64,000 bases of DNA from an uncultured Methanosarcinales archaeon (lineage in GTDB: Archaea; Nanobdellota; Nanobdellia; Woesearchaeales; JAGVZT01): positions 28,189-92,188 of the forward strand of contig CAYUHF010000003.1 in assembly GCA_964444505.1 (NCBI GenBank), written 5' to 3'. A program made the translations under genes and the position numbers. Shown here one piece after another: positions 10,975-28,721 of the stretch; within the stretch, counting starts at the first letter, position 1; every line of letters begins with the position of its first letter. The notes beneath the pieces are model-generated. The model was not told the DNA's origin and made no database searches. It was given only the letters and a program-made list of their open reading frames with translations.

Positions 10975-11521
10975 CCATATCCCTTAGCTTATTCACAAAC
11001 AAAACAGCTTTTATCCTAAGATTCTCAACTTCCATACTATCAAAAAGCGTCTTAGTTGAATATGTGGCATTCTCTCTTTTATTCTTTGACTCAACATAAA
11101 ACAGAACATCCTCATAGTCCAAAAAACCTGAGACAATTATCAGATCTTCTTTGGACAGACCCTTCTTATAGAACTTTTCTATCAGAACCAATAGTGTAGC
11201 TTCATGGTTTTTGGAGGAATAACCTTTTGTCTGTATCAATGCCAGTGCTGCATGATAGCAGGCATAATAGCATCCAGTAATTGCCCAATCATAGAATTTA
11301 TTTTCAGAAGCCAGTTTGATAAACCTAAGGTTGTTCTCTGCTTTTGAAATATGCCCTTCTATTTCTGCATGGTCAATCTCCTGTTTATTCAGCAGCCCCT
11401 CATTTCTATACTTTTTGATCCTCCCACTCACAATTTCAGGGTTGTCCAATAGTCTAAGAAGCTCATATTCTCTCATCAAGGACCTCATAATATGAGATGT
11501 GATTGACGATCGGATAACCAC
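10958..11521 (-). CDS. HEPN-domain protein (toxin partner of MNT), copy 2
   Basis: The size and all-helical sequence fit, and it overlaps the MNT genes on both sides. It is paralogous to 9913..10403. A KNH variant replaces the canonical Rx4-6H motif (YSSKNHEATLLVL). The true start is probably at an internal Met (MRSLMREYELL). Confidence 0.55.
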   Translation of the reverse strand: MVIRSSITSHIMRSLMREYELLRLLDNPEIVSGRIKKYRNEGLLNKQEIDHAEIEGHISKAENNLRFIKLASENKFYDWAITGCYYACYHAALALIQTKGYSSKNHEATLLVLIEKFYKKGLSKEDLIIVSGFLDYEDVLFYVESKNKRENATYSTKTLFDSMEVENLRIKAVLFVNKLRDMVDNSN

Positions 11522-12131
11522 TGTTTATTGCAGACTGTATTACCTTATCCTCTTTAAGTTTAAGTTCAATAACAAAATCATTGTATTCAATCTGGAAAGT
11601 ATTAATCTTAACTGCAGCAAGAGCATCTGCTTCATTTTCTGCATCTTTTGTTGAAATCTTTTTGTTTGTGACAAGCAGTATATCCATATCAGACTCTTTC
11701 TTTTGCGTGCCTTTGGCAGTTGAACCAAAAAGAACCGCAAAGACAGGTACTTGGTCAAGCTTTTCCATGTATGCCTTTATCGCTTTTTTTCTTATTCTGG
11801 GCAGTTTCTGATACCTTTCAACATCAAAAGAAGTAAACACAAGATACGCTTGTCTTGTCTTCTTAACTCTAAAGAGTTTTAGATTCCCTTTCCTGTCTGA
11901 CTTTAGTATTTGGTCCTCTTCCAGTCTTTCAAGAAATCTGGTTACGCTTGGTAGATGCATATCTGCCCTTCTTGCAATTTCTCTTAGATGCAATTCCCTG
12001 CCCATATCATCATAGAATAACTGCATTATTTCCATATAGCCGTTTTTTAATATTGTTACCATTATTATATCAATCGTTATAATATCTTTATCATATATAA
12101 ACCTTTCTAACTGTTTCATATGATTAATCAA
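11463..12131 (-). CDS. wHTH + minimal nucleotidyltransferase (MNT), copy 2
   Basis: LFGSTAKGTQKKESDMDILLV matches the NTase motif. An N-terminal HTH (LHLREIARRADMHLPSVTRFLERL) is present. The protein is paralogous to 10321..10974. Confidence 0.7.
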   Translation of the reverse strand: MINHMKQLERFIYDKDIITIDIIMVTILKNGYMEIMQLFYDDMGRELHLREIARRADMHLPSVTRFLERLEEDQILKSDRKGNLKLFRVKKTRQAYLVFTSFDVERYQKLPRIRKKAIKAYMEKLDQVPVFAVLFGSTAKGTQKKESDMDILLVTNKKISTKDAENEADALAAVKINTFQIEYNDFVIELKLKEDKVIQSAINSGYPIVNHISYYEVLDERI

Positions 12132-13050: not shown

Positions 13051-13386
13051 TTAGATCAAATCCATCCCCTTGAGTTTTTCAAGTATTCTCCTCCCAAGTT
13101 CAGTCCCATTATCAACTTCTATGTAAGCTGCATTCCATGAATACGGCTTGTCATCAACAACTACTATTATCTCATTTCTTACATCTTCAGGAAGATTTGA
13201 ATAAACCCTCAAAAACCTGTCTTTTGACATCTGAAGCATATTACATTTCTCATCTATATAAAGATTATTAAAACATAACATAAAATATCCAAAAAACTTT
13301 CGAGAAAAAGTGTGGTTCCACCAATTAAAATCACATACAGCCTCGGCCAGATGAAGTTGCGAAGCAATGGAATAAGCCATGAGCAA
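13051..13386 (-). CDS. Small hypothetical protein (111 aa, or 62 aa from the internal ATG at 13239)
   Basis: The first ~17 codons (MLMAYSIASQLHLAEAV) come from the 60-nt MNT-derived repeat and are probably not native. A likelier start is MLQMSKDRFLRVYSNLPEDVRNEIIVVVDDKPYSWNAAYIEV. It is in the same frame as the 67-aa ORF, separated by a single TAA. Confidence 0.4.
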   Translation of the reverse strand: MLMAYSIASQLHLAEAVCDFNWWNHTFSRKFFGYFMLCFNNLYIDEKCNMLQMSKDRFLRVYSNLPEDVRNEIIVVVDDKPYSWNAAYIEVDNGTELGRRILEKLKGMDLI

Positions 13387-13401
13387 ATGGCCTTCTGTGC
13401 C
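13341..13401 (-). repeat. 60-nt dispersed repeat (copy B), continuous with ~27 nt homologous to the 5' end of MNT copy 1
   Basis: The reverse complement is ~90% identical to 2718-2777. Positions 13391-13417 (ccttctgtgccgtagctgtaagaaaaa) match 10926-10953 at the start of the MNT gene at 26 of 27 positions. Confidence 0.6.
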
Positions 13402-13419
13402 GTAGCTGTAAGAAAAAAA

Positions 13420-16400
13420 TTAAACAACAATGATTGGCCTGTGCCTTACCCTTCTCAAGCCTTCATTGTATAATTCAAGCTTGACCATGTAAAACCCTGG
13501 CCTTGCATCATCAGGTATTTCCAGCAACAAGTCTCTTGTCAACTCACCGTCAGCATTCACACTCATTGGACCGAGTCTTCTGCTCTTGATTCCAAGTCCC
13601 TGGACAAATGCCTCTATTTCTAGATTCTTCATCTCACAATAACCCATGTTCCTGAAGTTTACTGTTATCTGGAGCTCTTCTCCCGGCTCTACAACCTCAT
13701 CATACACAAACCCGATTCTGTCGATTCTTATCTTTGCCTTTGGCTCGTTTATGTAGTTGTAGTCGCACTCTGTTTTTTCATACTCGCACATGCAGTCGCT
13801 GCAGATATCTATTGTTGTCGGGTTGTCATCAAAGCAGTCTGCATCTGTTGCACACTCTGCTCCGCATCTTCCAGCTACACACTGTGTTTTTGTCTCAAAT
13901 TCACCAAAAACACACATACACTGTGAACTGCAGTCACCATAGCCCTGTGCTACTGACAGCTTGTTTCCAACACACTCTTCTTCTTTTGCAAAGCAGTTTT
14001 CATTCCCGGAAGTTCCAGGTAGTTCACATTCCTCTCCTGCATCAATGTTTCCATCACCGCAGTAAGGAACATACTCGTGCTCACACATACAACCGCTGCA
14101 TGTGTCTATTGTGTGCTCGTTCAGGTCATTGCAGTCATCATCTGAGTCACACTCAGCACCGCATGATCCCTGCACACATTCTGCTACTGGCCATACATCC
14201 TGCAGACAGCCGCAGTTTGGATCACAGTAACCAAATTCATCCCTGGTTGCTGTTTTCTTGCCTTCGCACTTTTCTGTGCTTTGTTCACAATATGAGTTGT
14301 CCTGTGTATCAGGCAGCTCACATTCTTCACTTGATGAATCAACCATCCCGTCACCACAATATCCATTGTGGGTGTATTCACATACACAGCTGTCTGTACA
14401 GACATCATCTGTTAATGGGTCTGAATCATCACAGTCTGAATCTGTCTCGCACTCTGCATTACATCTTGACATGTCACATGTATGAGTAAGTGTATCATCT
14501 TCTGTTGTACATTCACCTGGCTCTACACATTCTGATTCAAAACCTTCTCTTTTGTCCCATGTGTATGGGTTGCTATCAGGTATATTGTTACATGTCATTA
14601 TCTCTTCTATATCATATTCTGAGCAGTCTATTGGCTCTCCTGGTACACAGAATGCTGAATCATTATCTTCTTCACATGACTCCTGGCCATTGCAGCCAAG
14701 TCCGTCATCACAGTCCTGTTTTAGTGTATCTGAAAAAACACACTCTGCATTAGAACATGTCCCATCTCTTCCCCAGTGTTCTGTTCCTACACAGTAGCCG
14801 CTGTCAAGCTCATTGCAATCCTCTGTGGTTGTTTCTGTTTCACATTGGTTTTCTATACATACTCCTTGGTCATGTTTTACAAAGTCTCCATCACAGTAAT
14901 CATCATCTAAATAATCACAGTCTGAGTCTTCCATACATTCATATGGCTGGCACATCTCATCACAGCCATTTGTTCCTGGTGCAAACTCATCACATTCTGG
15001 TGCTGAAAGACATCCTGCATAGTCATCTTCACAGTGGTTGTCCTGCAGTTTGCAGTTTGCATCACAGTAGTCCTGCAGATATGGTGAACCATGCTCATCA
15101 CATGAAGCCAAAACTGTATTTGGCAGCTCACACTCCTCTCCAGCATCAGGATCAACTATTCCGTCACCACAGTAGCCATTATGGGTGTATTCACATGTAC
15201 AGCTGTCTGTACAAATATCATCTGTTAAAGGATTTGAATCATCACAATCAGAGTTTCTCTCGCACTCTGCATTACATCTTGAGATGTCACAGCTGTGCGT
15301 TATCATTTCGTCTCCAGTTGTACATTCTCCTGGTTCTACACATTCTGATTCAAAACCTTCTCTTTTGTCCCACGTGTATGGGTTGCTGTCAGGCATATTG
15401 TTACATGTCATTATCTCTTCTATATCATATTCTGAGCAGTCTATTGGCTCTCCTAAAACACACTCTGCCTGGTGATCAGCTCCTGGTGTTTCTTCACATG
15501 TCTCCTGGCCGTTGCAAGCAAGCCCGTCATCACAACTATAACTGTCTGAATCTATTATTACACACTTTGCAGAGTCACATGAATACAATTCTGTTACAAT
15601 GGAATTTCCTGAACAGTATTCTGTGTCAAGCTCACTGCAGTCCTCTGTTGTGGTCTCAACTTCACATTTATTTTCTATACATACTCCTTGGTCGTGCCTG
15701 ATCAAATCTCCAGCACAGTAATCATCATCCAGATAATCACAGTCTGAATCATCCATACACTCGTATGGCTGGCATGTCAAGTCACAGCCTTCTGTTCCAG
15801 GGATCACTTCATCACACTCTGGGTGAGCTGAACATCCTGGATAATCATCTTCACAGTGCTCATCCTGAAGCTGGCAGTTCGCATCACAATAGTCTCCAAG
15901 ATAGCTGCTTCCATAATCACATGATGCCAAAGCTGTATTTGGCCTCTCACATTCTTCGCCTGCATCAGGATCAACTATGCCGTCTCCACAGTAGCCTTGC
16001 TTAATATGCTCACATTCGCATTCTACACATATATCATCAGTAAGAGGATTTGAATCGTCACAATCAGAGTTTTTCTCGCATTCTGCATTACACCTTGATA
16101 TATCGCATGCGTGTGTAATTATTCCTCCCCATGTTGTACATTGGCCTGGCTCTATACATTCTGATTCAAAGCTTTCTCTATAGTCCCATGAAAATGGATT
16201 ATCATCTGGTATATTGTTGCAGGTTGAAATCTCTTCTTTATCATTATATGAACAGTCGATTGGTTCTCCTGGTACACAGAATGCTGTATCAAGGTCTTCT
16301 TCACATGACTCCTGGCCATTGCATGCAAGGCCATCATCACATTGTTCAACTAAACTTGTTGAAACTGAACACTGTGCATTACTGCATGTTCCATCATCTT

Positions 16401-17676
16401 CCCAGACTTTTGAATTTGAGCAATATTCCTGATCATACTGGTTGCAGTCCTCAGTTGTTGTTTCAACTTCACATTCAAAATTAATACATACTCCTTCATC
16501 ATGTTTTACAAAGTCACCAGTACAGTAATCATCATCTAAATAATTACAGTCTGAATCATACTGGCATTCTGTGCATCTTGGGTCGTTGTAGCTTACTGTT
16601 GGGTTTGAACAACTGTTCTCCTCGCACATACAGTTTCTGCAGTCATTAACTTTGTCTGAATAATCATAATAATCATTTCCAACACACCCGTCAAGATGGT
16701 CGCATTCTGTATTGTCACAGTCATAGTTTGAGTCACAATCAGCACCACATCTGCCCTCAACACACTGGAAATTAAAACTGTCAAATATACATCCGCAGTA
16801 GTGGCCGCAGTCTCCATAATAGTCTCTTGTTCCCAGTTTGTTTCCTTCACACCTTTCTGTGCTCTGGACACAATAGTGGTTGTTGTAGGTATCTGGATAT
16901 TCACAACTCTCTGTATAGTCTACATGTCCGTCACCACAGTAAGACTGCTGTTCTATTGTAAAGCTGCTGTCTGCACATGGAATGTTGTGGTCTTTGTAGA
17001 ACATTGCATAATATATTCCTGTCTGGGTTGGTGTGTATTCCCAGTCCCAGTAGCCTTTCTGGCCTGCTTTGTGATGGTTACCCATCCTATCTGGTCCTCC
17101 AAGACTCACTATAGTGCCTGAAGGATTTCTTACTTTAACAATTACATTTGTATAAGGAACATATGATCTTATTCTTATGTAGAATTTCTGGTCTAAAGAA
17201 GGTGTTACCTGGTTTCCATACTGGTCAACAAAGAGCATCTCTTCGTGTGCATCTGGGTCGCAACTCTGCACTTCACCGCCGTCTCCCACCCACACAATAA
17301 AGTCATTAACTGTGTTGTCATATCCAGGAGCATTGAATATATCTATCTGCTGTGTCTGGTCTCCATTTGCATTTATACAAAAAGACCCTGATGTCTTGAC
17401 TTCAGGTGTTGAATCCCTGCACTCTATGCCTGTATCTCCCTGGCAGGTGTGTCTTTCTACTCTCCAGCCGCTGTAAGGTACTGTACAGCACATTGTGTCT
17501 TCATTACATCCAATACAGTTTGGATCATTTTCATATGCACCGCAGATATTTACTATCTCTCCCCATGCACCGCTCTGGCTCTGGTGAGGTATTGGCGGGT
17601 TCGGGTATCCTATTACTGCCTGTAAGGCTATTAGAAATAATACTGAGTAAATTACAAATCTTGTTTTTTTATCCAT
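13420..17676 (-). CDS. Giant secreted cysteine-rich modular surface protein 1 (1418 aa), with 3 copies of a ~270-aa module and a C-terminal CARDB-like beta-sandwich
   Basis: The start was trimmed to the ATG at 17676 (MDKKTRFVIYSVLFLIALQAV signal peptide). Repeated motifs are CMDDSDCDYLDDDYC, CDDGLACNGQETCEE and CGDGIVDPDAGEECE (Myxococcus-type Cys-rich repeat-like). The C-terminus GEELQITVNFRNMGYCEMKNLEIEAF...GFYMVKLELYNEG is CARDB-like. Confidence 0.85.
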   Translation of the reverse strand: MDKKTRFVIYSVLFLIALQAVIGYPNPPIPHQSQSGAWGEIVNICGAYENDPNCIGCNEDTMCCTVPYSGWRVERHTCQGDTGIECRDSTPEVKTSGSFCINANGDQTQQIDIFNAPGYDNTVNDFIVWVGDGGEVQSCDPDAHEEMLFVDQYGNQVTPSLDQKFYIRIRSYVPYTNVIVKVRNPSGTIVSLGGPDRMGNHHKAGQKGYWDWEYTPTQTGIYYAMFYKDHNIPCADSSFTIEQQSYCGDGHVDYTESCEYPDTYNNHYCVQSTERCEGNKLGTRDYYGDCGHYCGCIFDSFNFQCVEGRCGADCDSNYDCDNTECDHLDGCVGNDYYDYSDKVNDCRNCMCEENSCSNPTVSYNDPRCTECQYDSDCNYLDDDYCTGDFVKHDEGVCINFECEVETTTEDCNQYDQEYCSNSKVWEDDGTCSNAQCSVSTSLVEQCDDGLACNGQESCEEDLDTAFCVPGEPIDCSYNDKEEISTCNNIPDDNPFSWDYRESFESECIEPGQCTTWGGIITHACDISRCNAECEKNSDCDDSNPLTDDICVECECEHIKQGYCGDGIVDPDAGEECERPNTALASCDYGSSYLGDYCDANCQLQDEHCEDDYPGCSAHPECDEVIPGTEGCDLTCQPYECMDDSDCDYLDDDYCAGDLIRHDQGVCIENKCEVETTTEDCSELDTEYCSGNSIVTELYSCDSAKCVIIDSDSYSCDDGLACNGQETCEETPGADHQAECVLGEPIDCSEYDIEEIMTCNNMPDSNPYTWDKREGFESECVEPGECTTGDEMITHSCDISRCNAECERNSDCDDSNPLTDDICTDSCTCEYTHNGYCGDGIVDPDAGEECELPNTVLASCDEHGSPYLQDYCDANCKLQDNHCEDDYAGCLSAPECDEFAPGTNGCDEMCQPYECMEDSDCDYLDDDYCDGDFVKHDQGVCIENQCETETTTEDCNELDSGYCVGTEHWGRDGTCSNAECVFSDTLKQDCDDGLGCNGQESCEEDNDSAFCVPGEPIDCSEYDIEEIMTCNNIPDSNPYTWDKREGFESECVEPGECTTEDDTLTHTCDMSRCNAECETDSDCDDSDPLTDDVCTDSCVCEYTHNGYCGDGMVDSSSEECELPDTQDNSYCEQSTEKCEGKKTATRDEFGYCDPNCGCLQDVWPVAECVQGSCGAECDSDDDCNDLNEHTIDTCSGCMCEHEYVPYCGDGNIDAGEECELPGTSGNENCFAKEEECVGNKLSVAQGYGDCSSQCMCVFGEFETKTQCVAGRCGAECATDADCFDDNPTTIDICSDCMCEYEKTECDYNYINEPKAKIRIDRIGFVYDEVVEPGEELQITVNFRNMGYCEMKNLEIEAFVQGLGIKSRRLGPMSVNADGELTRDLLLEIPDDARPGFYMVKLELYNEGLRRVRHRPIIVV
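14361..16572 (-). repeat. Array of three ~810-nt coding tandem modules inside giant gene 1
   Basis: The module boundaries are derived from the repeated YECM(D/E)DSDCDYLDDDYC anchors at aa ~375, 646 and 919. Long stretches are identical in DNA to modules of giant gene 2. For example, 14907-15155 and 19080-19358 give identical alternate-frame peptides. Confidence 0.75.
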
Positions 17677-17723
17677 TTTTATTGTCCACCTCAAATGTTA
17701 TAACCATTAAGTGACTACTATCA

Positions 17724-17753: not shown

Positions 17754-17916
17754 CTTTTGGTAAAAGAAGAGAAATACAGATCAAATTAGCAAATTCTCTG
17801 TTGCCAGATAGAGTTTTGAGTTTAGAAACGAAATAGGGCGGGGAGCTACAGTCTGTACCCTGGAAGTGTGATTCCAACATAGTTGTTAAAGAAAATATTC
17901 CAAGAAGTAAAAAGAA

Positions 17917-20900
17917 TCAAATTACAATGATTGGCCTGTGCCTTACTCTTCTCAAGCCTTCATTGTATAATTCAAGCTTGACCATGTAAAACCCTGGCCT
18001 TGCATCATCAGGTATTTCCAGCAACAAGTCTCTTGTCAACTCACCGTCAGCATTCACACTCATTGGACCGAGTCTTCTGCTCTTGATTCCAAGTCCCTGG
18101 ACAAATGCCTCTATCTCAAGGCTCTTCATCTCGCAGTAGCCCATGTTTTTGAAATTGACAACTATCTGGAGCTCTTCGCCGGGTCTTACTATCTCATCAT
18201 GCACAAAGCCGATTCTGTCAATTTTTATCTTGGCTTTTGGGTCTTTTATATAGTTGTAGTCGCACTCTGTTTTTTCATACTCACACATGCAGTCGCTGCA
18301 GATATCTATTGTTGTTGGGTTGTCATCAAAGCAGTCTGCATCTGTTGCACACTCTGCCCCGCATCTTCCAGCTACACACTGTAGTTCTGATTCAAACTCG
18401 CCAAAGGTACACTTGCACTGATAACTGCAGTCACCGTAGCCCTGTGCTACTGACAACTTGTTTCCAACACACTCTTCTTCTCTTGCAAAGCAGTTTTTGT
18501 TGTCTGATGTTCCAGGTAGTTCACACTCTTCACCTGATGCTGTATCAACTATCCCATCACCACAGTATCCAATGTGGGTGTATTCACATACACAGTCTTT
18601 ACAGACCTCATCTGTTAATGGGTCTGAATCATCGCAGTCTGAGTTTGTTTCGCACTCTGCATCACACTCTGAAATATCACATGTGTGCTCTATTGTTTCA
18701 TCTTCTGTTGTACATTCTCCTGGCTCCACACATTCTGACTCAAAGCTTTCTCTATAGTCAAATGTGTATGGGTTATCATCAGGTATATTATTACAGGTTG
18801 AAATTCCTTCTATATCATATTCTGAGCAGTCTATTGGCTCTCCAGATACACAGAATGCTGAATCATTATCTTCTTCACATGACTCCTGGCCATTGCAGCC
18901 AAGTCCGTCATCACACTCTTCCTGCATATAATCGTTAACAATACACTGGGCATCTGAACAGGTTCCTTCTGATACCCAAATCTCTGTGCCCTGGCATGAT
19001 TCTTCGTCATACTGGCTGCAATCTTCTGCTGTGGTCTCGACTTCACATTGGTTTTCTATACATACTCCATTATCATGTTTTACAAAGTCTCCATCACAGT
19101 AATCATCATCCAGATAGTCACAGTCTGAGTCTTCCATACACTCATATGGCTGGCACATCTCATCACAGCCATTTGTTCCTGGTGCAAACTCATCACATTC
19201 TGGTGCTGAAAGACATCCTGCATAGTCATCTTCACAGTGGTTGTCCTGCAGTTTGCAGTTTGCATCACAGTAGTCCTGCAGATATGGTGAACCATGCTCA
19301 TCACATGAAGCCAAAACTGTATTTGGCAGCTCACACTCCTCTCCAGCATCAGGGTCAACTATTCCGTCACCACAATATCCATTGTGGGTGTATTCACATA
19401 TACAACTGTCTGTACAAATATCATCTGTCAATGGGTCTGAATTATCGCAGTCTGAATCTGTTTCGCACTCTGCATTACATCTTGATATGTCACATGTGTG
19501 AGTAAGTGTATCATCTTCTGTTGTACACTCCCCTGGCTCTACACATTCTGATTCAAAACCTTCTCTTTTGTCCCATGTGTATGGGTTGCCATCAGGTATA
19601 TTATTACAAGTTAATATTTCTTCTATATCATATTCTGAGCAGTCGATTGGCTCTCCTGATACACACTCTGCCTGGTGATCAGCTCCTGGTGTTTCTTCAC
19701 ACGTTTCCTGGCCATTACATGCAAGGCCATCATCACAATTATAACTGCCTGAACCTGCTATTACACATTCTGCATTGCTGCATGTATGGTCCTCTGTTAT
19801 AATGGAAGTTCCTGAACAGTATTCTGTGTCAAGCTCATTACAATCCTCTGTGGTTGTTTCTGTTTCACATTTGTTTTCTATACATACCCCATGGTCATGT
19901 TTGACCAAGTCACCTTCACAATAATCATCATCCAGATAATCACAGTCTGAATCATCCATACACTCGTATGGCTGGCAGGTCAAATCACAGCCAGCTGTCC
20001 CTGGGATCACTTCATCACAATCTGGATGTGCTGTACACCCTGGATAGTCATCTTCACAGTGGTCATCCTGGAGCTTACAGTTTGAATCGCAGTAGTCCTG
20101 CAGATAATCTTCCCCATAATCACATGATGCCAGGACTGTGTTTGGAAGCTCACACTCTTCACCTGCATCTGGATCAACTATGCCGTCACCACAGTAGCCT
20201 TGCTTAATATGCTCACATTCGCATTCTACACATATATCATCAGTAAGAGGATTTGAATCGTCACAATCAGAGTTTTTCTCGCATTCTGCATTACATCTTG
20301 AGATATCGCATGCGTGTGTAATTATTCCTCCCCATGTTGTACATTCTCCTGGTTCAATACATTCTGATTCAAAGCTTTCTCTATAGTCCCATGTGTATGG
20401 ATTATCATCTGGTATATTGTTACAGGTTGAAATCTCTTCTTTATCATTATCTGAACAGTCTATTGGTTCTCCTGGTAAACAGAATGCTGTAGCAAGGTCT
20501 TCTTCACATGACTCCTGGCCATTGCATGCAAGGCCATCATCACAGTCCTGTTTTAATGTATCTGAAACAACACACTCTGCATTAGAACATGTCCCGTCTC
20601 TTCCCCAGTGTTCTGTTCCTACACAGTAGCCGCTGTCAAGTTCATTACAATCATTTGTGGTTGTTTCTGTTTCACATTTGTTTTCTATACATACCCCTTG
20701 GTCATGTTTGACCAAGTCACCTTCACAATAATCATCATCTAAATAATCACAGTCTGAGTCATCCATGCACTCGTATGGCTGGCATGTCAAGTCACAGCCA
20801 GCTGTCCCAGGAATTAATTCATCACATTGAGAATCAGCTGTACATCCTGGATAATCATCTTCACAGTGGTTGTCCTGCAGTTTGCAGTTTGCATCACAGT

Positions 20901-23115
20901 AATCCTGCAGATAATCTTCCCCATAATCACATGATGCCAGGACTGTGTTTGGAAGCTCACACTCTTCACCTGCATCTGGATCAACTATGCCGTCACCACA
21001 GTAGCCTTGCTTAATATGCTCACATTCGCATTCTACACATATATCATCAGTAAGAGGATTTGAATCGTCACAATCAGAGTTTTTCTCGCATTCTGCATTA
21101 CATCTTGAGATATCGCATGCGTGTGTAATTATTCCTCCCCATGTTGTACATTCTCCTGGTTCAATACATTCTGATTCAAAGCTTTCTCTATAGTCCCATG
21201 TGTATGGATTATCATCCGGTATATTGTTACAGGTTGAAATCTCTTCTTTATCATTATCTGAGCAGTCTATTGGTTCCCCTGGTACACAGAATGCTGTATC
21301 AAGGTCTTCTTCACACGTTTCCTGGCCATTGCATGCAAGGCCATCATCACATTGTTCAACTAAACTTGTCGCTACTGAACATTCTGCATTATCACAAATG
21401 CCGTCATCTTCCCAAACCTGGGTTCCTGAACAATATTCCTGATCATACTGGTTGCAATCCTCTGTTGTTGTTTGCACCTGACATGCATAATCAACACACA
21501 CTCCTTGGTCATGCTTAACTAAATCACCCACACAGTAATCATTATCTAAATAATTACAATCTGAATCATCCTGGCATTCTGTACATCTTGGGTCATCTTC
21601 ATAAATAGTTGGATTTGAACAGCTGTTATCCTCGCACATACAATTTCCCATGCAGTCATTAACCTTGTCTGAATAGTCATAATAATCTTTTCCAATACAC
21701 CCATCAAGATGGTCGCATTCTGTTGCAAAACAGTCATCATCCGAATCACACTGTGCTCCGCAAACATTCTGGACACAGTACTCGTTCTGCGGCTCTGCAA
21801 AGCAGTCAACAGAACAGTTTTCACAAGTGCAGTCTGAAAAACAGCTGTTGTCGCATGACTCTCTTACAACTGTTGAGTCCAGTACTTTATCAGAATCATA
21901 TTCAACCAGTTTGTTTCCATTACAATAATCTTCATAGGTTTCTTCACATGAGTTTTCAGGACAATCACCATCTGAATCACACTGTGCTTCGCAGCTGTCC
22001 TCTACACACAGGGCAGTGTTCCAGTTGTCATCTACACATCCGCATGATGAATCACAATATCCAAACTCATCTCTTGTTGCTGTTTTTAGGCCAACACATT
22101 TTTTTGTGGATTGGTCGCAATAAGTATTATCTTCTGTTTCCGGAAGCTCACATTCTTCATCTGGATCAACAAAACCGTCTCCACAGTAAGCAAGTGGCTG
22201 GCACTCTTGGTCACAACCTCCTGTTCCAGGGATTAATTCATCGCAATCAGGATGAGAGCTGCATCCAGGATAGTCATCCTCACAATGTTCATCCTGCAGC
22301 TGGCAGTTGGAATCACAGTAGTCTCCAAGATAACTGTTTCCATGATCACATGTTGAGAGTGCATGGTTTGGAGGGTCGCACTCTTCTCCTTCTTCTATAA
22401 TTCCGTTTCCGCATACTGGCTCTGTTATTTCAAAATGCAGGTATTTGTCCTGCCATATTGTGGACTCACACTGGCATTCATTAGGCAGCCATGTATGAAC
22501 AGAGAAGTTATGTTCTCCTGGTTCTGTGATTGTATAAGTATAAGTGAATTCTTTTTTGACTCCGAATGGAATCTGGGCCATCCCGCTTTCCTGAAGTTCA
22601 TCGTCTGCATAGAAATGCACATCTACTGTTGATGCAAAATGAGGATAAACAAGATCTGATGGTACTGACTGCGGACCTGTTTCAGCAGGAAAGTCATGTG
22701 ATGCTTCAACTTTTGCTGTTATTGTGACTGTGTCACCAATTTCAGGGTTTTGCGGCTCCATTGTAATTTCTCTTACAGGAGCTGCACAGTCCGTTGCTTT
22801 TTCAAAATCAACATTATATGACCATGGACCTTCTCCTGTCTGGTCATCTGTGCTAACAATATATGTCTGGGGCATGTAGCAATCTTTGTAGTTGTACTCT
22901 CCAAAGTACTGTTGTCCAGAACCATCCAGAACATACTCGTTTGAACTGCCGTAGTAATTACCCAGCTCTTCTGTCAGATAATAACAGTCATCACCCCAGC
23001 ATTTCCACACATTTGTGTGAAAGTCTGAATCAGATTCTACAATTATTCTCACTGGATAAGCTGAAACTGATGCAACCAGAATCAGCATCCAAAATAAGTA
23101 AACAAGTTTTTTCAT
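17917..23115 (-). CDS. Giant secreted cysteine-rich modular surface protein 2 (1733 aa), with 4 module copies, an N-terminal Ig-like region and the same C-terminal CARDB-like domain
   Basis: The start was trimmed to the ATG at 23115 (MKKLVYLFWMLILVASVSAYP). GAGGTC lies 10 nt after the stop of the upstream gene. The last ~320 nt are nearly identical to 13420-13740. Confidence 0.85.
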   Translation of the reverse strand: MKKLVYLFWMLILVASVSAYPVRIIVESDSDFHTNVWKCWGDDCYYLTEELGNYYGSSNEYVLDGSGQQYFGEYNYKDCYMPQTYIVSTDDQTGEGPWSYNVDFEKATDCAAPVREITMEPQNPEIGDTVTITAKVEASHDFPAETGPQSVPSDLVYPHFASTVDVHFYADDELQESGMAQIPFGVKKEFTYTYTITEPGEHNFSVHTWLPNECQCESTIWQDKYLHFEITEPVCGNGIIEEGEECDPPNHALSTCDHGNSYLGDYCDSNCQLQDEHCEDDYPGCSSHPDCDELIPGTGGCDQECQPLAYCGDGFVDPDEECELPETEDNTYCDQSTKKCVGLKTATRDEFGYCDSSCGCVDDNWNTALCVEDSCEAQCDSDGDCPENSCEETYEDYCNGNKLVEYDSDKVLDSTVVRESCDNSCFSDCTCENCSVDCFAEPQNEYCVQNVCGAQCDSDDDCFATECDHLDGCIGKDYYDYSDKVNDCMGNCMCEDNSCSNPTIYEDDPRCTECQDDSDCNYLDNDYCVGDLVKHDQGVCVDYACQVQTTTEDCNQYDQEYCSGTQVWEDDGICDNAECSVATSLVEQCDDGLACNGQETCEEDLDTAFCVPGEPIDCSDNDKEEISTCNNIPDDNPYTWDYRESFESECIEPGECTTWGGIITHACDISRCNAECEKNSDCDDSNPLTDDICVECECEHIKQGYCGDGIVDPDAGEECELPNTVLASCDYGEDYLQDYCDANCKLQDNHCEDDYPGCTADSQCDELIPGTAGCDLTCQPYECMDDSDCDYLDDDYCEGDLVKHDQGVCIENKCETETTTNDCNELDSGYCVGTEHWGRDGTCSNAECVVSDTLKQDCDDGLACNGQESCEEDLATAFCLPGEPIDCSDNDKEEISTCNNIPDDNPYTWDYRESFESECIEPGECTTWGGIITHACDISRCNAECEKNSDCDDSNPLTDDICVECECEHIKQGYCGDGIVDPDAGEECELPNTVLASCDYGEDYLQDYCDSNCKLQDDHCEDDYPGCTAHPDCDEVIPGTAGCDLTCQPYECMDDSDCDYLDDDYCEGDLVKHDHGVCIENKCETETTTEDCNELDTEYCSGTSIITEDHTCSNAECVIAGSGSYNCDDGLACNGQETCEETPGADHQAECVSGEPIDCSEYDIEEILTCNNIPDGNPYTWDKREGFESECVEPGECTTEDDTLTHTCDISRCNAECETDSDCDNSDPLTDDICTDSCICEYTHNGYCGDGIVDPDAGEECELPNTVLASCDEHGSPYLQDYCDANCKLQDNHCEDDYAGCLSAPECDEFAPGTNGCDEMCQPYECMEDSDCDYLDDDYCDGDFVKHDNGVCIENQCEVETTAEDCSQYDEESCQGTEIWVSEGTCSDAQCIVNDYMQEECDDGLGCNGQESCEEDNDSAFCVSGEPIDCSEYDIEGISTCNNIPDDNPYTFDYRESFESECVEPGECTTEDETIEHTCDISECDAECETNSDCDDSDPLTDEVCKDCVCEYTHIGYCGDGIVDTASGEECELPGTSDNKNCFAREEECVGNKLSVAQGYGDCSYQCKCTFGEFESELQCVAGRCGAECATDADCFDDNPTTIDICSDCMCEYEKTECDYNYIKDPKAKIKIDRIGFVHDEIVRPGEELQIVVNFKNMGYCEMKSLEIEAFVQGLGIKSRRLGPMSVNADGELTRDLLLEIPDDARPGFYMVKLELYNEGLRRVRHRPIIVI
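18423..21576 (-). repeat. Array of four ~810-nt coding tandem modules inside giant gene 2
   Basis: Anchors lie at aa ~569, 838, 1107 and 1381 of the ORF. ORF-track alternate-frame peptides recur at 19968, 20775 and 15765. Confidence 0.75.
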
Positions 23116-23125
23116 ATTAAGACCT

Positions 23126-24280
23126 CTATTGTCCTTCCCTGCCAGGAGTTCTTGTTGGTCCTGGAGCTGGTTCACTATCATCAGGTGTATTCTCTGGCGG
23201 CACAGGGGTATCAGGGATATCACCCATATCACCTGTTGGTGTTGGTCCTGGTTGTGGTGCCGGTTTTGTCTGTATTGCACCCTCTGTGGGTTCAGGTACT
23301 ACAGTTGGTATAGGTGTTCCTTCTCTGCTTGGATCCCTTTCTTTTTGCTCTCTTGTTTTTTGAGGTGTGATTGTCGGGAATACATAAGTTGGAGATGTTG
23401 GTGTTGGGAGCACATAGACTGGAGTATTTGTAGCCCTTGGACTTTGACCTCTTGGGATAGACACCATAAATTGTTCATATACACTCTGGCAGCCTTCCTG
23501 GTTTTCAAACATCCCTATGAAATCAGCAAATTCATACAATCCACAAGTAAGACCCTGCATTCTGAGTCTATCAAGCATTCCTCCTTCAAAAACATACATT
23601 CTAATACCATTAATATCCTTGACATCAACTGGTTCTGCTTCTTCACATTCCTTGTACTTGAAGGTTTGGCTGTCAATTGGTGTTTTTGTGTATCCGCAAA
23701 TCTTAAAGTCTACCCAGTCATCTTTGTCTGTTATCAAATAAAGACTTAGTTTCTGATCCAGACCAGCACACGAGTTTATTATTCTTGATGCATCTCCAAG
23801 CTCTCTGAAAATACTCTCTCTGGCTTCACTTGGACTGCCGCTTTTTCCAATTATTGCCTCTAATTTCTCCTCTCTCCCCATAATATTTGAACCAAAAAGA
23901 ACAGTCATTGCATTGTTTCCAGAACAACAATAATCTGAAGAAACTGTATCTGATACTGCCTGTGTTGGCTCGTATGTTGCTGATGGCTCTGGTGTTAGGC
24001 TCTGCCAGGCTCTTGTTGCCTCCTCTGCTATTGAAGCCTCAGCTGTTCCCCAAACAGCAGTCTCTAAATTTGAAGTACTCATATCAGAAGCATCAGCCTG
24101 GTGAGATGACTCATCTTCCACCTCATACTTTGTAGGAGTTACACTCATTCCAAGACATCCAAAAGTACCAAAAGAGGCTCCAGCCAAAGCAAGTAATATC
24201 GCGTTTTTAGGATTTTCTCTAATATTATTGATAACTCTACCTGCCCTATAACCAAAATTAGCCAAACCATACTGTTCCAT
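23126..24280 (-). CDS. N-terminally membrane-anchored protein with a Cys-containing globular domain and a C-terminal Pro/Thr-rich tail. It is co-operonic with giant gene 2.
   Basis: The start was trimmed to the ATG at 24280 (MEQYG..., GGAGGT SD 7 nt upstream). The TM segment is AILLALAGASFGTFGCLG. The tail is PTPTSPTYVFPTITP...PAPQPGPTPTG. The stop lies 10 nt before the giant gene start. Confidence 0.7.
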   Translation of the reverse strand: MEQYGLANFGYRAGRVINNIRENPKNAILLALAGASFGTFGCLGMSVTPTKYEVEDESSHQADASDMSTSNLETAVWGTAEASIAEEATRAWQSLTPEPSATYEPTQAVSDTVSSDYCCSGNNAMTVLFGSNIMGREEKLEAIIGKSGSPSEARESIFRELGDASRIINSCAGLDQKLSLYLITDKDDWVDFKICGYTKTPIDSQTFKYKECEEAEPVDVKDINGIRMYVFEGGMLDRLRMQGLTCGLYEFADFIGMFENQEGCQSVYEQFMVSIPRGQSPRATNTPVYVLPTPTSPTYVFPTITPQKTREQKERDPSREGTPIPTVVPEPTEGAIQTKPAPQPGPTPTGDMGDIPDTPVPPENTPDDSEPAPGPTRTPGREGQ

Positions 24281-24613
24281 TTTACATACCTCCATTGAAC
24301 ATGTTCTAAAAGTCAAAACAACTTGTTTCTTTATTACTTTAGAGTACTAAACCACTTATATAAATGTTTCGGTTACTTGGAAACCCGAGCTAATAGTCAT
24401 TTGATGCACGACAGTAATTATGCCACCTGTGGATAATTCAGAAATGCTTTTCTTAATTCCTGAACATAGTGACGGGACAGCCCGGGCTTCACCTCGGATT
24501 TTCAAGTCAGCAAATCCGCTTTCTAAAACCAAGAAGTACCCTGCAATTCAGTGTGGGAGCATCAGAAGCATATTTACGTTATTTATTTATACCAAGACAA
24601 TTATACTTTTTTT

Positions 24614-25654
24614 ATGATCGCAATAATTGGAGCAGGGCCTGTTGGGTGCTATACTGGCTATCTTCTGGCGAAAATGGGCTATGATATTGAAATCTTTGAG
24701 CAGGCATCAGTTATTGGAAAACCTGTTCAGTGCACAGGAATTGTCTCCACAAGGTTAAGAAAAATTGTTGAGGGGGATTTCGTGATAAACACAACAACAA
24801 AGGCAAAAATCTCCTGCGGCAAAGAACTTTTTCTTGATACCAAAAATCTTGTTATTGACAGGACACTTTTTGATATGCATCTTGCTGAGATGGCAGAAAG
24901 TGAAGGTGCACAAATACACCTCAAACACAAACTCACAAAAATCAATAAAGAGCTTTATTTTGGAAAAAACAAGAAAAAAGCAGATATCATTATTGGTGCT
25001 GATGGTCCAAACAGTGTTGTTGCAAAGCATATCGGTGTCAAACATGATTATTTTTTAGGGATGCAAGTTAGAGCAAGATATCCTAATGAGAACATTGTTG
25101 AGTTTTATCCTGGTGCTGGTGATTTTGGCTGGGTTGTTCCTGAATCAAAAAAGACTGCAAGAATTGGTATTGTATCAAGAAATCCGAAAAGAGAATTTGA
25201 TAAATTCCTAGAACTCATTAAGCCTGGAAAGATTCTTGAGCACAACGCAGGGTTAATACCAATATACAATCCAAAAATCCAGACAAAAAAAGACAATATA
25301 TACATTGTTGGTGATGCTGCAGGAATGGTCAAGCCGACAACTGCGGGAGGAATTGTGCAGGGACTTTTAGGGGCAGAAGCGCTTGCAGAATCAATTGATA
25401 AAAACACAGATTACGAGAGAGAATGGAGAAAACGCATTGGAAAAGACCAATATATTTCTTTGATGATGAGAAAAATAATGGACAAGTTCTCAAAAAGAGA
25501 TTATGAAATCCTGATTGATATTTTTGATAGTCCTTCAGGCAGAAGAATACTTGAGACAAAAAACAGGGATAATATTTCCTCTTTTATCCCCGAGTTAATT
25601 CTATTATCAATCAAGGACCCGAGAATGTTTGGTTACTTGAGATATTTGTTTTAG
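24614..25654 (+). CDS. FAD-dependent geranylgeranyl reductase family oxidoreductase
   Basis: MIAIIGAGPVGCYTGYLLAKMGYDIEIFE is an FAD Rossmann GxGxxG motif. The start was trimmed to the ATG at 24614. The rest of the sequence is GGR-like. Confidence 0.75.
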   Translation: MIAIIGAGPVGCYTGYLLAKMGYDIEIFEQASVIGKPVQCTGIVSTRLRKIVEGDFVINTTTKAKISCGKELFLDTKNLVIDRTLFDMHLAEMAESEGAQIHLKHKLTKINKELYFGKNKKKADIIIGADGPNSVVAKHIGVKHDYFLGMQVRARYPNENIVEFYPGAGDFGWVVPESKKTARIGIVSRNPKREFDKFLELIKPGKILEHNAGLIPIYNPKIQTKKDNIYIVGDAAGMVKPTTAGGIVQGLLGAEALAESIDKNTDYEREWRKRIGKDQYISLMMRKIMDKFSKRDYEILIDIFDSPSGRRILETKNRDNISSFIPELILLSIKDPRMFGYLRYLF

Positions 25655-26024
25655 GGTCTAAAATCAGCAGTATTTCTTTTGGGTCGCTTGCTCAGTGCTC
25701 TTCACTGATAGGAGCAAGCTCCGCAATAGTGCACCATCACAAAACTGAATTGACCACAAATCCTTCCGTGGCCAGACGTAATTGCGATGTTTTGAGCAAT
25801 GAAGTAGGACACTCGCAAGTGGCCGTCTGTGCCATGGGACGGAAGGATTTCTAAAGCATTAACATCTGTGCATTGGGTGCGGATGTCAAGAGTTCAAAGG
25901 TGATTCCAGAAATAAAGTAAATCTTGGATCCTCACCCTGCCTGTGGGGTATTGACGCCTCCATTTCTGCGAGGGAGATTTTTAAATAGCTTTTTTTCGCA
26001 ATATTTATAAATTATCTAAAGTTC
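25655..26024. ncRNA. Candidate structured non-coding RNA of unassigned class
   Basis: This spacer has no ORF and is visibly GC-enriched relative to its flanks. It has multiple long complementary segments: gcttgctc/gagcaagc (8 bp), ccttccgt...acggaagg (8 bp), gacg/cgtc and cactcgca/tgcgag. RNase P P4 (GGAAAGUCC) and SRP helix-8 (GGAAGCAGC) signatures were not found. Confidence 0.35.
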
Positions 26025-26045
26025 ATGCAAACAAGGGGGTATATC

Positions 26046-28721
26046 ATGGCTGACGATGAGATTGCTATTGATTTGAGTAAGATAAAGGACTTTTTTAAAG
26101 GGAAAAAAGATAAAAAACCTAAAGATGATGAGATAGCAATTGATCTCGGACAGATTGGAGATTTCTTCAGCAATCTGAAATTCCAAAAATATCACATACT
26201 TCTTCTAATATTAATTCCAATGCTTGCAGGTGTTTTTTTAAGAGCACAGCCTGCATATCTTCCTATAACTGATGAATGGGCAGAGAGCAGTGTGCATGGT
26301 TTTTACAGAAACAACATACTCCAGGAGATAAACAGGAACTATCCCAACCTGCCGGATTCCAGAAAGCAGGCAATGGTTGAAGAAAACTTCCAAGAACTTC
26401 TGAAGCAGCAGGGAGGACAGATAGAACAGCAAGTCCAGCAGACATCAAACCAGTTCAAAGAGAGAATGCAGGATGACAATGGACAGACTTATCTTCTTGC
26501 ACTTGATCCTTATTTCTGGCTAAGATATGCAGAAAATATTGATGAGAATGGCCATCCTGGTGATACTCTTGTTGATGGAAGACCCTACAGTACATTATTT
26601 TTGGCACCTGTCGGAAGATTTGTTGGACAGGATATTTTCCACCCTTATTTTGAATATTATTTCTATAAGTTGTTGAGTATTTTTGATGGTGATATGTATC
26701 TTATGAAGGCAGCTTTTTATGTGCCCATTATTCTCGCGGCACTGTGTGTTATTCCTGCTTTTTTTATTGCCAAGAAAATTAGCGGCAATATTGGTGGGTT
26801 TTTTGCGGCTATGCTTGTTGCAATCCACCCATCATTTTTGACCAGGACTGCAGGCGGTTTTGCAGATACTGATGCATATAATGTCTTGTTCCCTCTGATG
26901 ATTGCCTGGCTATTTATGGAAGCTTTTGATGCAAGGAAAAAGAAATTCACCATGCTCTTAAGTGCTGGAGCTGGCCTCTTGGTTGGCATATACAGCTTTA
27001 CATGGGGCGGCTGGTGGTATATACTTGACTTTTTGCTTGCTGTTGCTGGACTTTATACTGTATATTATCTTGTGATTCATAGAAATGACCTGAAAAACAG
27101 AAATACTCTTACAAAAATAAAAGATGTCCTCATATTGATTGCTGTGTTTTTTGTTTCTTCAGCCATCTTTACAACAGCATTTAGCAGTTTTGGAAATTTC
27201 AAAAGTATTGTTAGGTCTCCAATTAGTTTCACCCAGATAAAGGATGTTGGTACAAAGAGTATCTGGCCCAATGTGTATACAACTGTTGCTGAACAGAATG
27301 AGATATCAATAAGAGGGGCAATTAACCAGATTGGCGGAACTCTGATGTTTCTCTTGTCTGTTATCGGTATTGGACTTACGCTCAGGAAAAAAGACAAGCA
27401 CGGGAATATTGACCCTAAATACTCAATCCTGCTTGCGGTTTGGTTTGGTGCAACTTTGTACGCAAGCACAAAAGGAGTAAGATGGGTTCTTCTGCTTGTT
27501 CCTGCGTATGCAATTGCATTTGGTGTTTTTGCAGGAATTGCTGTAAAGTATATTGGCAAACAGATGTCAAAAGAACTTAAGATTAGTGAGATGATATCAA
27601 GAGCATCACTGGTACTGATAATTGGGCTTTTACTCATCTCGCCATTTAATGGGGCTCTAAACACTGCAAAAAGAGAGATTCCAAGTATGAATGATGCATG
27701 GGTTAATACACTTACAAAAATCAAAGACAACTCCACAGAAGATGCAATTATTAGCAGCTGGTGGGACTTTGGACACTGGTTCAAGTACTGGGCTGACAGG
27801 GGTGTTACTTTTGATGGAACATCACAGACTGGAGACAGGGCGCATTTTATTGGACTTACTCTTTTAACTGATGATGAAGAGCAGGCAGTTTCTCTTCTAA
27901 GAATGCTTAACTGCGGCGGTAACAATGCATTTGAAACTCTTGATGAGGAAAACCAGGATCCACTTGAATCAGTACAGGTGATAAAACACATAATCATGCT
28001 TGAACAAGATGATGCCAGGGATTATCTTACCGACTATGTAAGCGAAGAGACTGCTGATGAGGTCATACAATACACTCACTGTGATGCACCAAGAGACTAC
28101 TTTATTGCAAGCGAGGATATGGTCGGGAAATCAGGTGTGTGGGCGCACTTTGGTAGCTGGAACTTCACAAGAGCATCAATGGTCTTTGATGTTAGGCAGA
28201 AATCCAGAACAGAAGGAGTACAGATTCTTCAGGAGAAATATGGACTATCTGCCCAGGATGCTGAAACATATTATTATGAGATACGAACACAGGATCCAAA
28301 CAACTGGATTGCACCATGGCCAAGTTATTTTTCACAGACTGCTGCATGCTCAAGAACAAATGAAACAGTGAGATGCAACAATGGACTAATACTAAACCTG
28401 ACCAGTGAAGAAGCTTATGTTGAGACACCACAGGGCAGACAGTATCCAAAAGAGATTTCTTTTGTAAAAAATGATACATTCAGGCACAAGGTTTTTGAAG
28501 AAAACATATGGGTTGGGCAGAACAACCAGGAGATTGGTGCTGCATTCTTCCCGGCAGGAGACTCTTACCAGAGTATAATTATGGCACCGGAGCTTACTGC
28601 AAGTATGTTTACAAGACAGTTCTTTTTCAAAGGAGAGCATCTTGAGTATTTTGAGCCATTCCATCATGAAACTGATCTTACTGGTCTTGATATTTATGTC
28701 TACAAGGTTGACTGGGAATGA
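26046..28721 (+). CDS. aglB: Archaeal oligosaccharyltransferase AglB (STT3 family)
   Basis: The protein has a 13-TM N-terminal half and a WWDFGHW (WWDYG) motif. The start was chosen at the ATG at 26046 after a GGGGGT SD. The N-terminus carries a duplicated DDEIAIDL(x)I(x)DFF motif. Confidence 0.85.
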   Translation: MADDEIAIDLSKIKDFFKGKKDKKPKDDEIAIDLGQIGDFFSNLKFQKYHILLLILIPMLAGVFLRAQPAYLPITDEWAESSVHGFYRNNILQEINRNYPNLPDSRKQAMVEENFQELLKQQGGQIEQQVQQTSNQFKERMQDDNGQTYLLALDPYFWLRYAENIDENGHPGDTLVDGRPYSTLFLAPVGRFVGQDIFHPYFEYYFYKLLSIFDGDMYLMKAAFYVPIILAALCVIPAFFIAKKISGNIGGFFAAMLVAIHPSFLTRTAGGFADTDAYNVLFPLMIAWLFMEAFDARKKKFTMLLSAGAGLLVGIYSFTWGGWWYILDFLLAVAGLYTVYYLVIHRNDLKNRNTLTKIKDVLILIAVFFVSSAIFTTAFSSFGNFKSIVRSPISFTQIKDVGTKSIWPNVYTTVAEQNEISIRGAINQIGGTLMFLLSVIGIGLTLRKKDKHGNIDPKYSILLAVWFGATLYASTKGVRWVLLLVPAYAIAFGVFAGIAVKYIGKQMSKELKISEMISRASLVLIIGLLLISPFNGALNTAKREIPSMNDAWVNTLTKIKDNSTEDAIISSWWDFGHWFKYWADRGVTFDGTSQTGDRAHFIGLTLLTDDEEQAVSLLRMLNCGGNNAFETLDEENQDPLESVQVIKHIIMLEQDDARDYLTDYVSEETADEVIQYTHCDAPRDYFIASEDMVGKSGVWAHFGSWNFTRASMVFDVRQKSRTEGVQILQEKYGLSAQDAETYYYEIRTQDPNNWIAPWPSYFSQTAACSRTNETVRCNNGLILNLTSEEAYVETPQGRQYPKEISFVKNDTFRHKVFEENIWVGQNNQEIGAAFFPAGDSYQSIIMAPELTASMFTRQFFFKGEHLEYFEPFHHETDLTGLDIYVYKVDWE

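Follow-up and report, generated by a model that had tools for sequence, protein, structure and literature searches.

The intergenic spacer between the GGR and aglB genes carries one 93-nt copy (c1, 25758–25850, + strand) of a dispersed hairpin repeat. Five copies of this repeat were found in the 64-kb window, that is, in the whole stretch of DNA analysed here. The copy is very probably the sole real structural signal in the spacer, and we firmly conclude that the spacer consists of one repeat copy plus ordinary spacer sequence and is not one RNA gene. The original prediction had presented the region as a single heavily base-paired 370-nt RNA candidate of unknown class, with SRP RNA, RNase P RNA, an intron-containing tRNA or a 5′ leader of aglB among the suggested identities. 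A structured non-coding element does exist there, but its structured unit measures only about 90 nt and has four further copies, and the named RNAs (SRP RNA, RNase P RNA, tRNA or aglB leader) are not supported as the identity of the spacer.

The upstream neighbour, GGR (24614–25654, + strand), encodes a 346-aa geranylgeranyl (digeranylgeranylglycerophospholipid) reductase with Pfam matches to FAD_binding_3, NAD_binding_8 and Lycopene_cycl. Its product is identical to P0001, and homologues from Woesearchaeota bear the name GGR. Gene calls in a Logan contig (L001, 6.3 kb, identical to the window) include GGR and an 891-aa AglB, which matches Pfam STT3 and maps to the ATG at 26046. The start and predicted promoter of aglB (26004–26048, + strand) comprise a TATA box, TTTATAAA, at 26004–26011 and a Shine-Dalgarno sequence, GGGGG, at 26035–26039, and transcription of aglB is predicted to begin near 26036. 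Because aglB starts at ATG 26046, the spacer is 391 nt long, not 370 nt. The intergenic location was confirmed: 25655–26024 lies between the GGR stop at 25654 and aglB, and its longest ORF does not exceed 41 codons. The elevated GC content was confirmed as well, at 0.435 overall and 0.46–0.48 in 300-nt windows, compared with a window mean of 0.381 (sd 0.044), which places the spacer in the top 1–4% of windows.

The folding signal was confined to the centre of the spacer. Compared with shuffled sequences, the whole 370 nt gave a moderate signal of about equal size on the two strands (z = −2.4 on the + strand and −2.9 on the − strand), and the heavy pairing that had been ascribed to the entire region resides in the 93-nt element. 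Folded alone, 25758–25850 reached a minimum free energy of −41.1 kcal/mol (z = −5.2, 0 of 200 shuffles), and z was −6.1 when DNA parameters for single-stranded DNA were used. The 5′ (25655–25757) and 3′ (25851–25990) flanks gave z values of −1.75 and −0.24, respectively. Nearly all of the excess pairing in the spacer came from c1, with a small contribution from 25862–25886.

In c1, a perfect 12-bp outer stem is formed by AAATCCTTCCGT (25758–25769) and ACGGAAGGATTT (25839–25850), which enclose GGCCAGACG/CGTCTG-T-GCC, as had been pointed out from the sequence. The next pairs inward are GGC/GCC (25770–25772 with 25831–25833), a bulged U at 25830, and a CAGACG/CGUCUG helix (25773–25778 with 25824–25829). 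The tip holds hairpin A (25781–25800), the junction GAAGUAG (25801–25807) and hairpin B (25808–25823), all on the + strand. A further proposed pairing, cactcgca...tgcgag, was not borne out; it is a 6-bp match between segments 150 nt apart, and the folds pair it locally in the central element.

The remainder of the spacer contains ordinary signals. A T-rich tract, TATTTCTTTT, lies directly past the GGR stop (25671–25680, + strand) and, as read from the sequence, is possibly an oligo-T archaeal terminator of GGR. It is followed by a local hairpin, GCUUGCUC/GAGCAAGC, that encloses AGUG/CACU (inverted repeat I1, 25686–25719, + strand). The complementary arms of this hairpin, GCTTGCTC (25686–25693) and GAGCAAGC (25712–25719) around AGTG/CACT, are present as originally described, and the fold of 25681–25726 was not significant (z = −1.55). 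The hairpin occurs only in this spacer, and nothing related to it was found in the flanks of the other repeat copies or elsewhere in the window. On the other side of c1, a 10-bp hairpin, ACAUCUGUGC-AUUGG-GUGCGGAUGU (25862–25886, + strand), has three G·U pairs on the + strand and folded with z = −3.5. Its 5′ arm is a direct repeat (D1) of the c1 3′ arm (TCTGTGCCATGGG/TCTGTGCATTGGG, 39 nt apart) and may therefore be a partial duplication of that arm; the nhmmer match of 25862–25886 to the family 3′ end was not significant alone (E = 6.8). Towards aglB, a weak CCUCC...GGGAG stem is followed by T5 (25978–25982) and T7 (25990–25996). This segment (25958–25996, + strand) is likely a transcription stop for + strand read-through of the spacer. 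The fold of 25930–25985 was not significant (z = −1.2).

These features bear on the view that the whole 300–370-nt spacer is a single structured ncRNA (a divergent SRP RNA, an RNase P RNA or a novel large RNA) with the hairpin as one of its domains. The significant extra hairpin with its + strand G·U pairs would suit such an RNA, as would the T5/T7 runs, which could end a + strand transcript of about 300 nt, and the GC-rich flanks of c1 (0.51 in 25681–25757 and 0.46 in 25851–25975), unlike those of the other copies. However, these flanks fold no better than shuffles, the sole strongly structured part is a multi-copy repeat, and a convincing promoter is absent. No Rfam match to SRP RNA, RNase P RNA or any other family was obtained even at E ≤ 10, and a homologous spacer is absent in about 38 syntenic relatives, 15 of which showed no Rfam RNA. 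We regard this view as very improbable.

The first copies of the repeat were obtained by self-BLAST of the spacer against the window, in which the centre of the spacer matched 2714–2775 on the − strand (E = 2e-8) and 13345–13401 on the + strand. A covariance model (CM R1) was built from c1 (89.8 bits), c2 (2706–2788, − strand; 91.4 bits, fold z = −3.6) and c3 (13335–13412, + strand; 94.4 bits, z = −3.9). The model also detected c4 and c5, although both were absent from it. The first of these (17785–17875, + strand) is a diverged or decayed copy with a fold z of about 0, supported by a CM match at 17791–17871 (E = 0.018), a pattern match and nhmmer. Copy c5 (58305–58392, + strand) belongs to a diverged subfamily and was found by CM at 58307–58391 (E = 0.14) and by nhmmer. 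It retains the outer stem, the GC-CAGAU/GUCUG-U-GC helix and one apical hairpin, and its fold gave z = −2.1 as RNA and −3.8 as DNA. No sixth copy was found in the 64-kb window by the nhmmer profile or by relaxed patterns.

The copies are 78–93 nt long, intergenic in all five cases, and present at about 78 copies per Mb (5 in 64 kb). Their GC content is about 0.5, compared with a background of 0.38. Copies c1–c3 share a core of about 56–63 nt, GGCCAGAYG.ARUUGCGA..AGCAAUGRARUAGG.....GCAA.UGGCC.UCUGUGCC, with 80–91% identity; c2 and c3 have a core identity of 91% even though they lie 10 kb apart. The flanks of c2–c5 are AT-rich (GC 0.15–0.27; 0.15–0.25 for c2), and c1 alone has GC-rich flanks. 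No significant shared sequence was detected among the flanks of the copies, nor any significant family fragment in the flanks of c1. Since the flanks of the other copies are AT-rich and unrelated to those of c1, the repeated unit is the hairpin only. A structured unit of about 90 nt with four further copies in unrelated AT-rich flanks does not behave as a single-copy housekeeping RNA.

The repeat is a long imperfect palindrome, in which the 5′ strand of the outer stem is pyrimidine-rich and the 3′ strand purine-rich. The helix GC-CAGAY/GUCUG-U-RC, with the same single bulged U, was invariant in all five copies. The inner arms were invariant (GCCAGAY...GUCUGUGC; GCCAGAY/GUCUGURC), whereas the outermost sequence differed between copies. 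In the outer stems of the copies that share the core, the sequence varied but pairing was kept, and indels were compensated (CCUCC/GGAGG in c2 versus CCUUCC/GGAAGG in c1). Terminal complementarity is long in every intact copy, with the 12 perfect base pairs of c1 as an example. The tip is Y-shaped, with two small hairpins, and varies between subfamilies.

A manual structural alignment of the inner part comprised 92 cells, with 76 Watson-Crick pairs, 10 G·U pairs, 1 A·C pair and 5 others. Wobble-to-Watson-Crick switches were seen in its stems, and double compensatory changes included a switch of G-C to U-A in hairpin A of c4 and one of U-A to C-G in hairpin B of c1. Between divergent copies, the unpaired junction nucleotides (GA, GGAAUAG and the NNGCAA loop) were conserved at least as well as the paired ones; between c1 and c4, 17 of 22 unpaired positions and 20 of 34 paired positions were conserved. 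In each of the five copies, folding was more stable for the named strand than for the complementary one, and the hairpins were equally significant under DNA and RNA parameters.

We searched for known RNA classes with cmscan against Rfam 15, the check suggested at the outset. No match was obtained at gathering thresholds in the whole 64-kb window. At E ≤ 10, no SRP, RNase P or tRNA match was found on 25500–26200 or 25745–25865, and three single copies gave nothing relevant or recurrent. The spacer resembles archaeal SRP RNA and RNase P RNA in size (about 300–370 nt) and in its elevated GC content within an AT-rich archaeal genome, but it lacks their universal motifs, and its structured part is 93 nt long and multi-copy. 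For archaeal SRP RNA (RF01857/RF00017 clan), there was no CM match, the structured unit is five-copy rather than single-copy, and the GGAA of the element is part of the outer stem and not a helix 8 GNAR tetraloop. No match to archaeal RNase P RNA (RF00373) was obtained at gathering thresholds or at E ≤ 10, and the motif search in the original prediction was negative as well. The SRP RNA/RNase P RNA reading of the whole spacer is largely refuted already. A tRNA, including an intron-containing one, was likewise rejected: ARAGORN predicted 0 genes in the window, Rfam gave no tRNA match, and a 3′ complement to the candidate acceptor stem was absent.

Several other classes were considered and rejected. 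For a C/D box sRNA, the box positions read CAGAYG and CUGU, which form ordinary Watson-Crick and G·U pairs, and the GA dinucleotides are not conserved. A hammerhead core, a K-turn or K-loop, an H/ACA pocket with an ACA box, a bulge-helix-bulge splice motif and a SECIS element were dismissed on inspection, as were IS200/IS605 left- or right-end hairpins, DGR template or variable repeats and integron attC sites. Bacterial-type terminators did not fit either, as the copies carry their U-runs on the 5′ side and their A-runs on the 3′ side, which is the wrong way round.

We then compared the genomic setting of the copies. Copy c1 begins 104 nt past the GGR stop. Copy c2 has the same sense as both flanking genes and lies about 40 nt past the stop of a 579-aa gene and its T10 run, about 109 nt ahead of the next start. 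Copy c3 lies 8 nt beyond the stop of a 1424-aa minus-strand gene and is antisense to it, and c4, which matches c3 in position and orientation, is found 46 nt past the stop of that gene's 1787-aa paralogue. These tandem giant paralogues (1424 and 1787 aa) share 88% identity at their 3′ coding ends, whereas the likeness between c3 and c4 is only about 58%, and c4 no longer folds. Copy c5 sits between divergent DUF362/4Fe-4S and ELP3-like genes, and an analysis of the DUF362 N-terminus placed it outside the coding sequence. Four of the five copies lie 8–104 nt past a stop codon and ahead of the predicted promoter of the next gene. Both orientations relative to neighbouring genes occur, with c3 and c4 antisense to every neighbouring gene.

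For c1, c2 and c5, a TATA box is predicted between the element and the downstream start codon (distances 85–197 nt). Upstream of the elements themselves, well-placed TATA-like boxes at 25–45 nt were present for c4 and c5 only; no promoter was found within 60 nt of c1, and a small gene on the minus strand accounts for the TATA box near c3. An oligo-T run 3′ of the element on the sense strand was absent in all five copies.

If the repeat were a riboswitch or another cis-regulatory leader acting on aglB and further cell-envelope genes, this arrangement would be hard to explain, and we consider such an identity most unlikely. Copies c1, c2 and c5 do lie upstream and in sense of aglB, a 357-aa protein gene and the ELP3-like gene, respectively, and the core has a three-way junction with conserved junction bases, as a leader might. 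However, the predicted TATA boxes fall between element and start codon in precisely these three copies, together with T-runs in the case of c1, while c3 and c4 are antisense to all of their neighbours and the downstream genes have no common function. The aglB leader put forward in the original prediction is unlikely on the same grounds.

Databases contain no close relative of the host, a Woesearchaeota-like DPANN archaeon, and the nearest non-self GGR match is 50% identical. GGR-aglB synteny was found in about 38 of 80 representative related loci, and none of their spacers carries the element. These spacers are mostly 24–120 nt long, with a few of 150–375 nt, and measure 24 nt in the closest relative (L050). 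The element was not found anywhere in the 80 related Woesearchaeota loci (1.75 Mb). Searches of the 370 nt against the 80 GGR loci by nhmmer, blastn and tblastx gave no homologue and no coding remnant, and Rfam at gathering thresholds detected no RNA in the loci of 15 syntenic relatives. Some relatives bear their own, unrelated hairpins downstream of GGR.

In a JGI metagenome scan, a 21-base-equivalent pattern gave 28 matches, near the approximately 50 expected by chance according to a prior estimate; none of the 28 fitted the family models beyond the pattern used to select it (best E = 0.23 by CM and 0.21 by nhmmer). A pattern scan of viral contigs yielded only chance-level scores against the family HMM, the pattern being too degenerate to be useful. 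As neither the element nor a similar spacer was found in the relatives or in the metagenome and viral scans, the element is seemingly confined to its lineage. By these sequence comparisons, the long GGR-aglB spacer is a lineage-specific insertion.

The same searches bear on whether the region is the remnant of a decayed gene, or a GC-rich patch whose complementarity arose by chance. In the c1 flanks, the GC content is coding-like (0.46–0.51) without significant structure, and one frame is open for 65 codons, as a remnant might show. Against this, tblastx of the spacer against the 80 related loci gave nothing below E = 1, and the 41-aa ORF had no Pfam match. The recurrence of the element (E = 2e-8) together with its z of −5.2 indicates that it is not due to chance, and for the element itself the remnant reading is already refuted. 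For the region, we regard it as highly improbable.

Taking five copies in one genome as the family, we favour the interpretation that the repeat is a lineage-specific selfish or mobile hairpin element of REPIN- or MITE-like type located just past gene 3′ ends, and we give this interpretation about an even chance of being correct. The invariant inverted arms, the variable tip, the compensatory changes, the density, the intergenic sites and the coexistence of decayed and near-identical copies favour a REPIN/MITE/ERIC layout. The repeat is non-coding, multi-copy and within the 50–800 bp size range of MITEs, and it shows the inverted motifs, variable spacer, long ssDNA hairpin and compensatory changes of the REP/REPIN layout. 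REPINs commonly show compensatory changes in their hairpins (PMC3116915), and for one Woesearchaeal genome a MITE density of about 105 per Mb has been reported, which ranks among the highest in archaea (PMC11602168).

Several observations count against a mobile element. No target-site duplication (2–10 bp) was found by inspection of the flanks of c1, c2, c3 and c5, and no transposase, RAYT, integrase or Y1 transposase domain was found by Pfam among the approximately 50 ORFs of the window. The outermost stems vary between copies, unlike the conserved terminal inverted repeats of MITEs. No terminal GTAG tag is conserved, and CGTC occurs in c1 and c2 only, with CTTC and AGTC in the others. Descriptions of REP/REPIN families and RAYTs come from bacteria and not from archaea (PMC3733652). 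In addition, conserved unpaired junction nucleotides and compensated tip hairpins are seen more typically in functional RNAs than in selfish repeats undergoing decay.

The main rival of the mobile interpretation is a new small-RNA family, of which c1 would be the paralogue in the GGR-aglB spacer. The copies would be RNA genes or modules (about 75–95 nt) of a new functional class, whose stem, bulged-U helix and three-way junction bind a protein or ligand; we consider this possible but doubtful. The drift of the stems by wobble and compensation while junction and loop nucleotides stay conserved fits such a family, as do the strong strand asymmetry (10 G·U against 1 A·C, with the sense strand more stable in 5/5), the GC content of about 0.5 in a 0.38 genome and the TATA-like boxes 25–45 nt upstream of c4 and c5. 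The 91% core identity of c2 and c3 over a distance of 10 kb, combined with the decay of c4 at the position paralogous to c3, would fit selection on some copies. However, the promoters are inconsistent, given the lack of one within 60 nt of c1 and the assignment of the c3 TATA box to the minus-strand small gene, and no copy is followed by an oligo-T terminator on its sense strand. Five paralogues with near-identical cores in 64 kb would be unusual for a non-guide cellular ncRNA, no homologue was found in 1.75 Mb of related loci, the JGI metagenome scan or Rfam, and mobile REPINs also show compensatory changes. That the five elements form an undescribed small structured RNA class of one Woesearchaeal lineage, defined by a long helix with an invariant bulged-U recognition site and, as its cap, a three-way junction with conserved unpaired bases, is in our estimate rather unlikely. 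An RNA of this kind could be the RNA partner in an RNP, or it could punctuate intergenic transcripts as a catalytic or processing signal.

Returning to the favoured mobile hairpin repeat, we infer that a small non-autonomous element may have spread into intergenic DNA just beyond gene 3′ ends. A protein encoded elsewhere in the genome would recognise the single-stranded repeat through its bulged-U helix. As an incidental effect, read-through from GGR would give its message a very stable 3′ stem-loop ahead of the aglB promoter. This stem-loop might serve as a barrier or insulator at the 3′ end, and not as a trans-acting RNA.

These results remove a false lead, as the contig holds no cryptic DPANN SRP RNA or RNase P RNA. 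They also indicate that a GC-rich, well-folding patch between genes of an AT-rich DPANN genome can be a dispersed hairpin repeat and not a housekeeping RNA. If the element is mobile, it would be an archaeal counterpart of REPIN/MITE repeats whose design is unusual in that the internal bulged-U helix is invariant, the outer stems vary and target duplication is absent; the enzyme responsible for its movement would then merit a search. As a functional RNA, the element would represent a new lineage-specific family. The element lies at the boundary between a lipid reductase gene and an N-glycosylation island and may therefore shape transcript ends there.

Among known repeat families, ERIC/IRU, Correia (NEMIS), BOX and RUP are bacterial imperfect palindromes of 70–150 nt that occur in both orientations and are co-transcribed with flanking genes. 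They fold as stable RNA stem-loops and affect the 3′ ends or processing of mRNAs; Correia additionally has a TA duplication and conserved terminal inverted repeats. The repeat described here is similar to these families in its size and imperfect-palindrome form but has no sequence relationship to them.

Bacterial REPINs (REP doublets; Bertels & Rainey 2011, PMC3116915) differ from the repeat in several respects. The repeat lacks GTAG and a consistent CGTC tag, its arms are not themselves small palindromes, its tip is a conserved two-hairpin junction instead of a free spacer, and no RAYT (IS200/IS605-type Y1 transposase) gene is present in the window. Like REPINs, it is of about 70–110 nt and exclusively intergenic, has two inverted conserved arms around a less conserved spacer, and forms a single long imperfect hairpin when single-stranded. 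Compensatory stem changes, tens of copies per Mb, a frequent position just downstream of genes and the use of either orientation are further shared features. Unlike MITEs, the repeat has no target-site duplications, its internal helix is invariant while its outermost inverted repeats vary, and no related autonomous IS was seen in the window. Nevertheless, it resembles prokaryotic MITEs in being small, non-coding, multi-copy and intergenic and in the inverted complementarity of its ends, which spans at least 10 bp, and its host belongs to a MITE-rich lineage (PMC11602168).

The 3' arm of the hairpin-repeat copy c1 in the GGR–aglB spacer (25758-25850, + strand), TCTGTGCCATGGG (25826-25838), recurs 39 nt downstream as TCTGTGCATTGGG (25865-25877), and this second copy is the 5' arm of a small hairpin at 25862-25886. 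The 5' arm of c1, GGCCAGACG, could serve as an alternative pairing partner for the downstream copy. The arrangement may have arisen by partial duplication or may act as a structural switch.

A mechanically called DUF362/4Fe-4S ORF (57144-58445, − strand) carries approximately 50-60 surplus N-terminal codons that overlap repeat copy c5 (58305-58392); the conserved beginning of DUF362 (..KVALERCKDY..) implies that the gene starts near 58260-58295. For the ORF listed as 111 aa at 13051-13386 (− strand), which had no Pfam match, the true gene is probably ~60 aa long, with a start near 13236 (MSKDRFLRVYSNLPEDV...) and a TATA box of its own at 13263-13254 (CTTTATATAG, minus strand).

A repeat copy also follows each of two giant genes (13420-17694 and 17917-23280, both − strand), tandem paralogues encoding proteins of 1424 and 1787 aa. 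No Pfam domain was detected in either protein. The two genes share internally repeated segments of ~820 bp with 73-85% identity, and the C-termini of their products are near-identical (...RRVRHRPIIV). The pair probably encodes surface proteins that grow through internal duplication. Adjoining it is an HTH-MNT, HEPN, HTH-MNT row (minimal nucleotidyltransferase and HEPN; 10321-12131, − strand), which resembles a toxin-antitoxin-type cluster.

Across the whole 64-kb window nothing reached the Rfam gathering threshold, whether tRNA, rRNA, or another family. Two long stretches, 9456-10320 (865 nt) and 23281-24550 (1270 nt), contained neither a non-overlapping ORF of at least 80 aa nor an Rfam match; the latter is overlapped by a 396-aa ORF (23126-24316, − strand) in which no Pfam domain was found. 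At 4590-5795 (+ strand), a 2'-5' RNA ligase/LigT-like domain is fused to a calcineurin-like metallophosphoesterase, a protein of the RNA-end-processing type. Downstream of aglB lies a large protein-glycosylation island (26046-57147) encoding many GT2 and GT4 glycosyltransferases, three PMT_2-type transferases, a Wzx-like flippase, nucleotide-sugar enzymes (epimerases/dehydratases, NTP transferases, GHMP kinase, SIS, and HAD), several methyltransferases, and a B12-radical SAM enzyme.

Strong hairpins were also observed directly downstream of GGR, the geranylgeranyl reductase gene, in other Woesearchaeota, at loci L032 (5072-5160, a region with the unit GGGGGCUUUGCCCCCUUUUU in tandem repeat), L009 (5141-5200), and L003 (5310-5350). 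These hairpins are unrelated, each being its lineage's own. Such observations suggest that this site often carries a lineage-specific 3' hairpin element.
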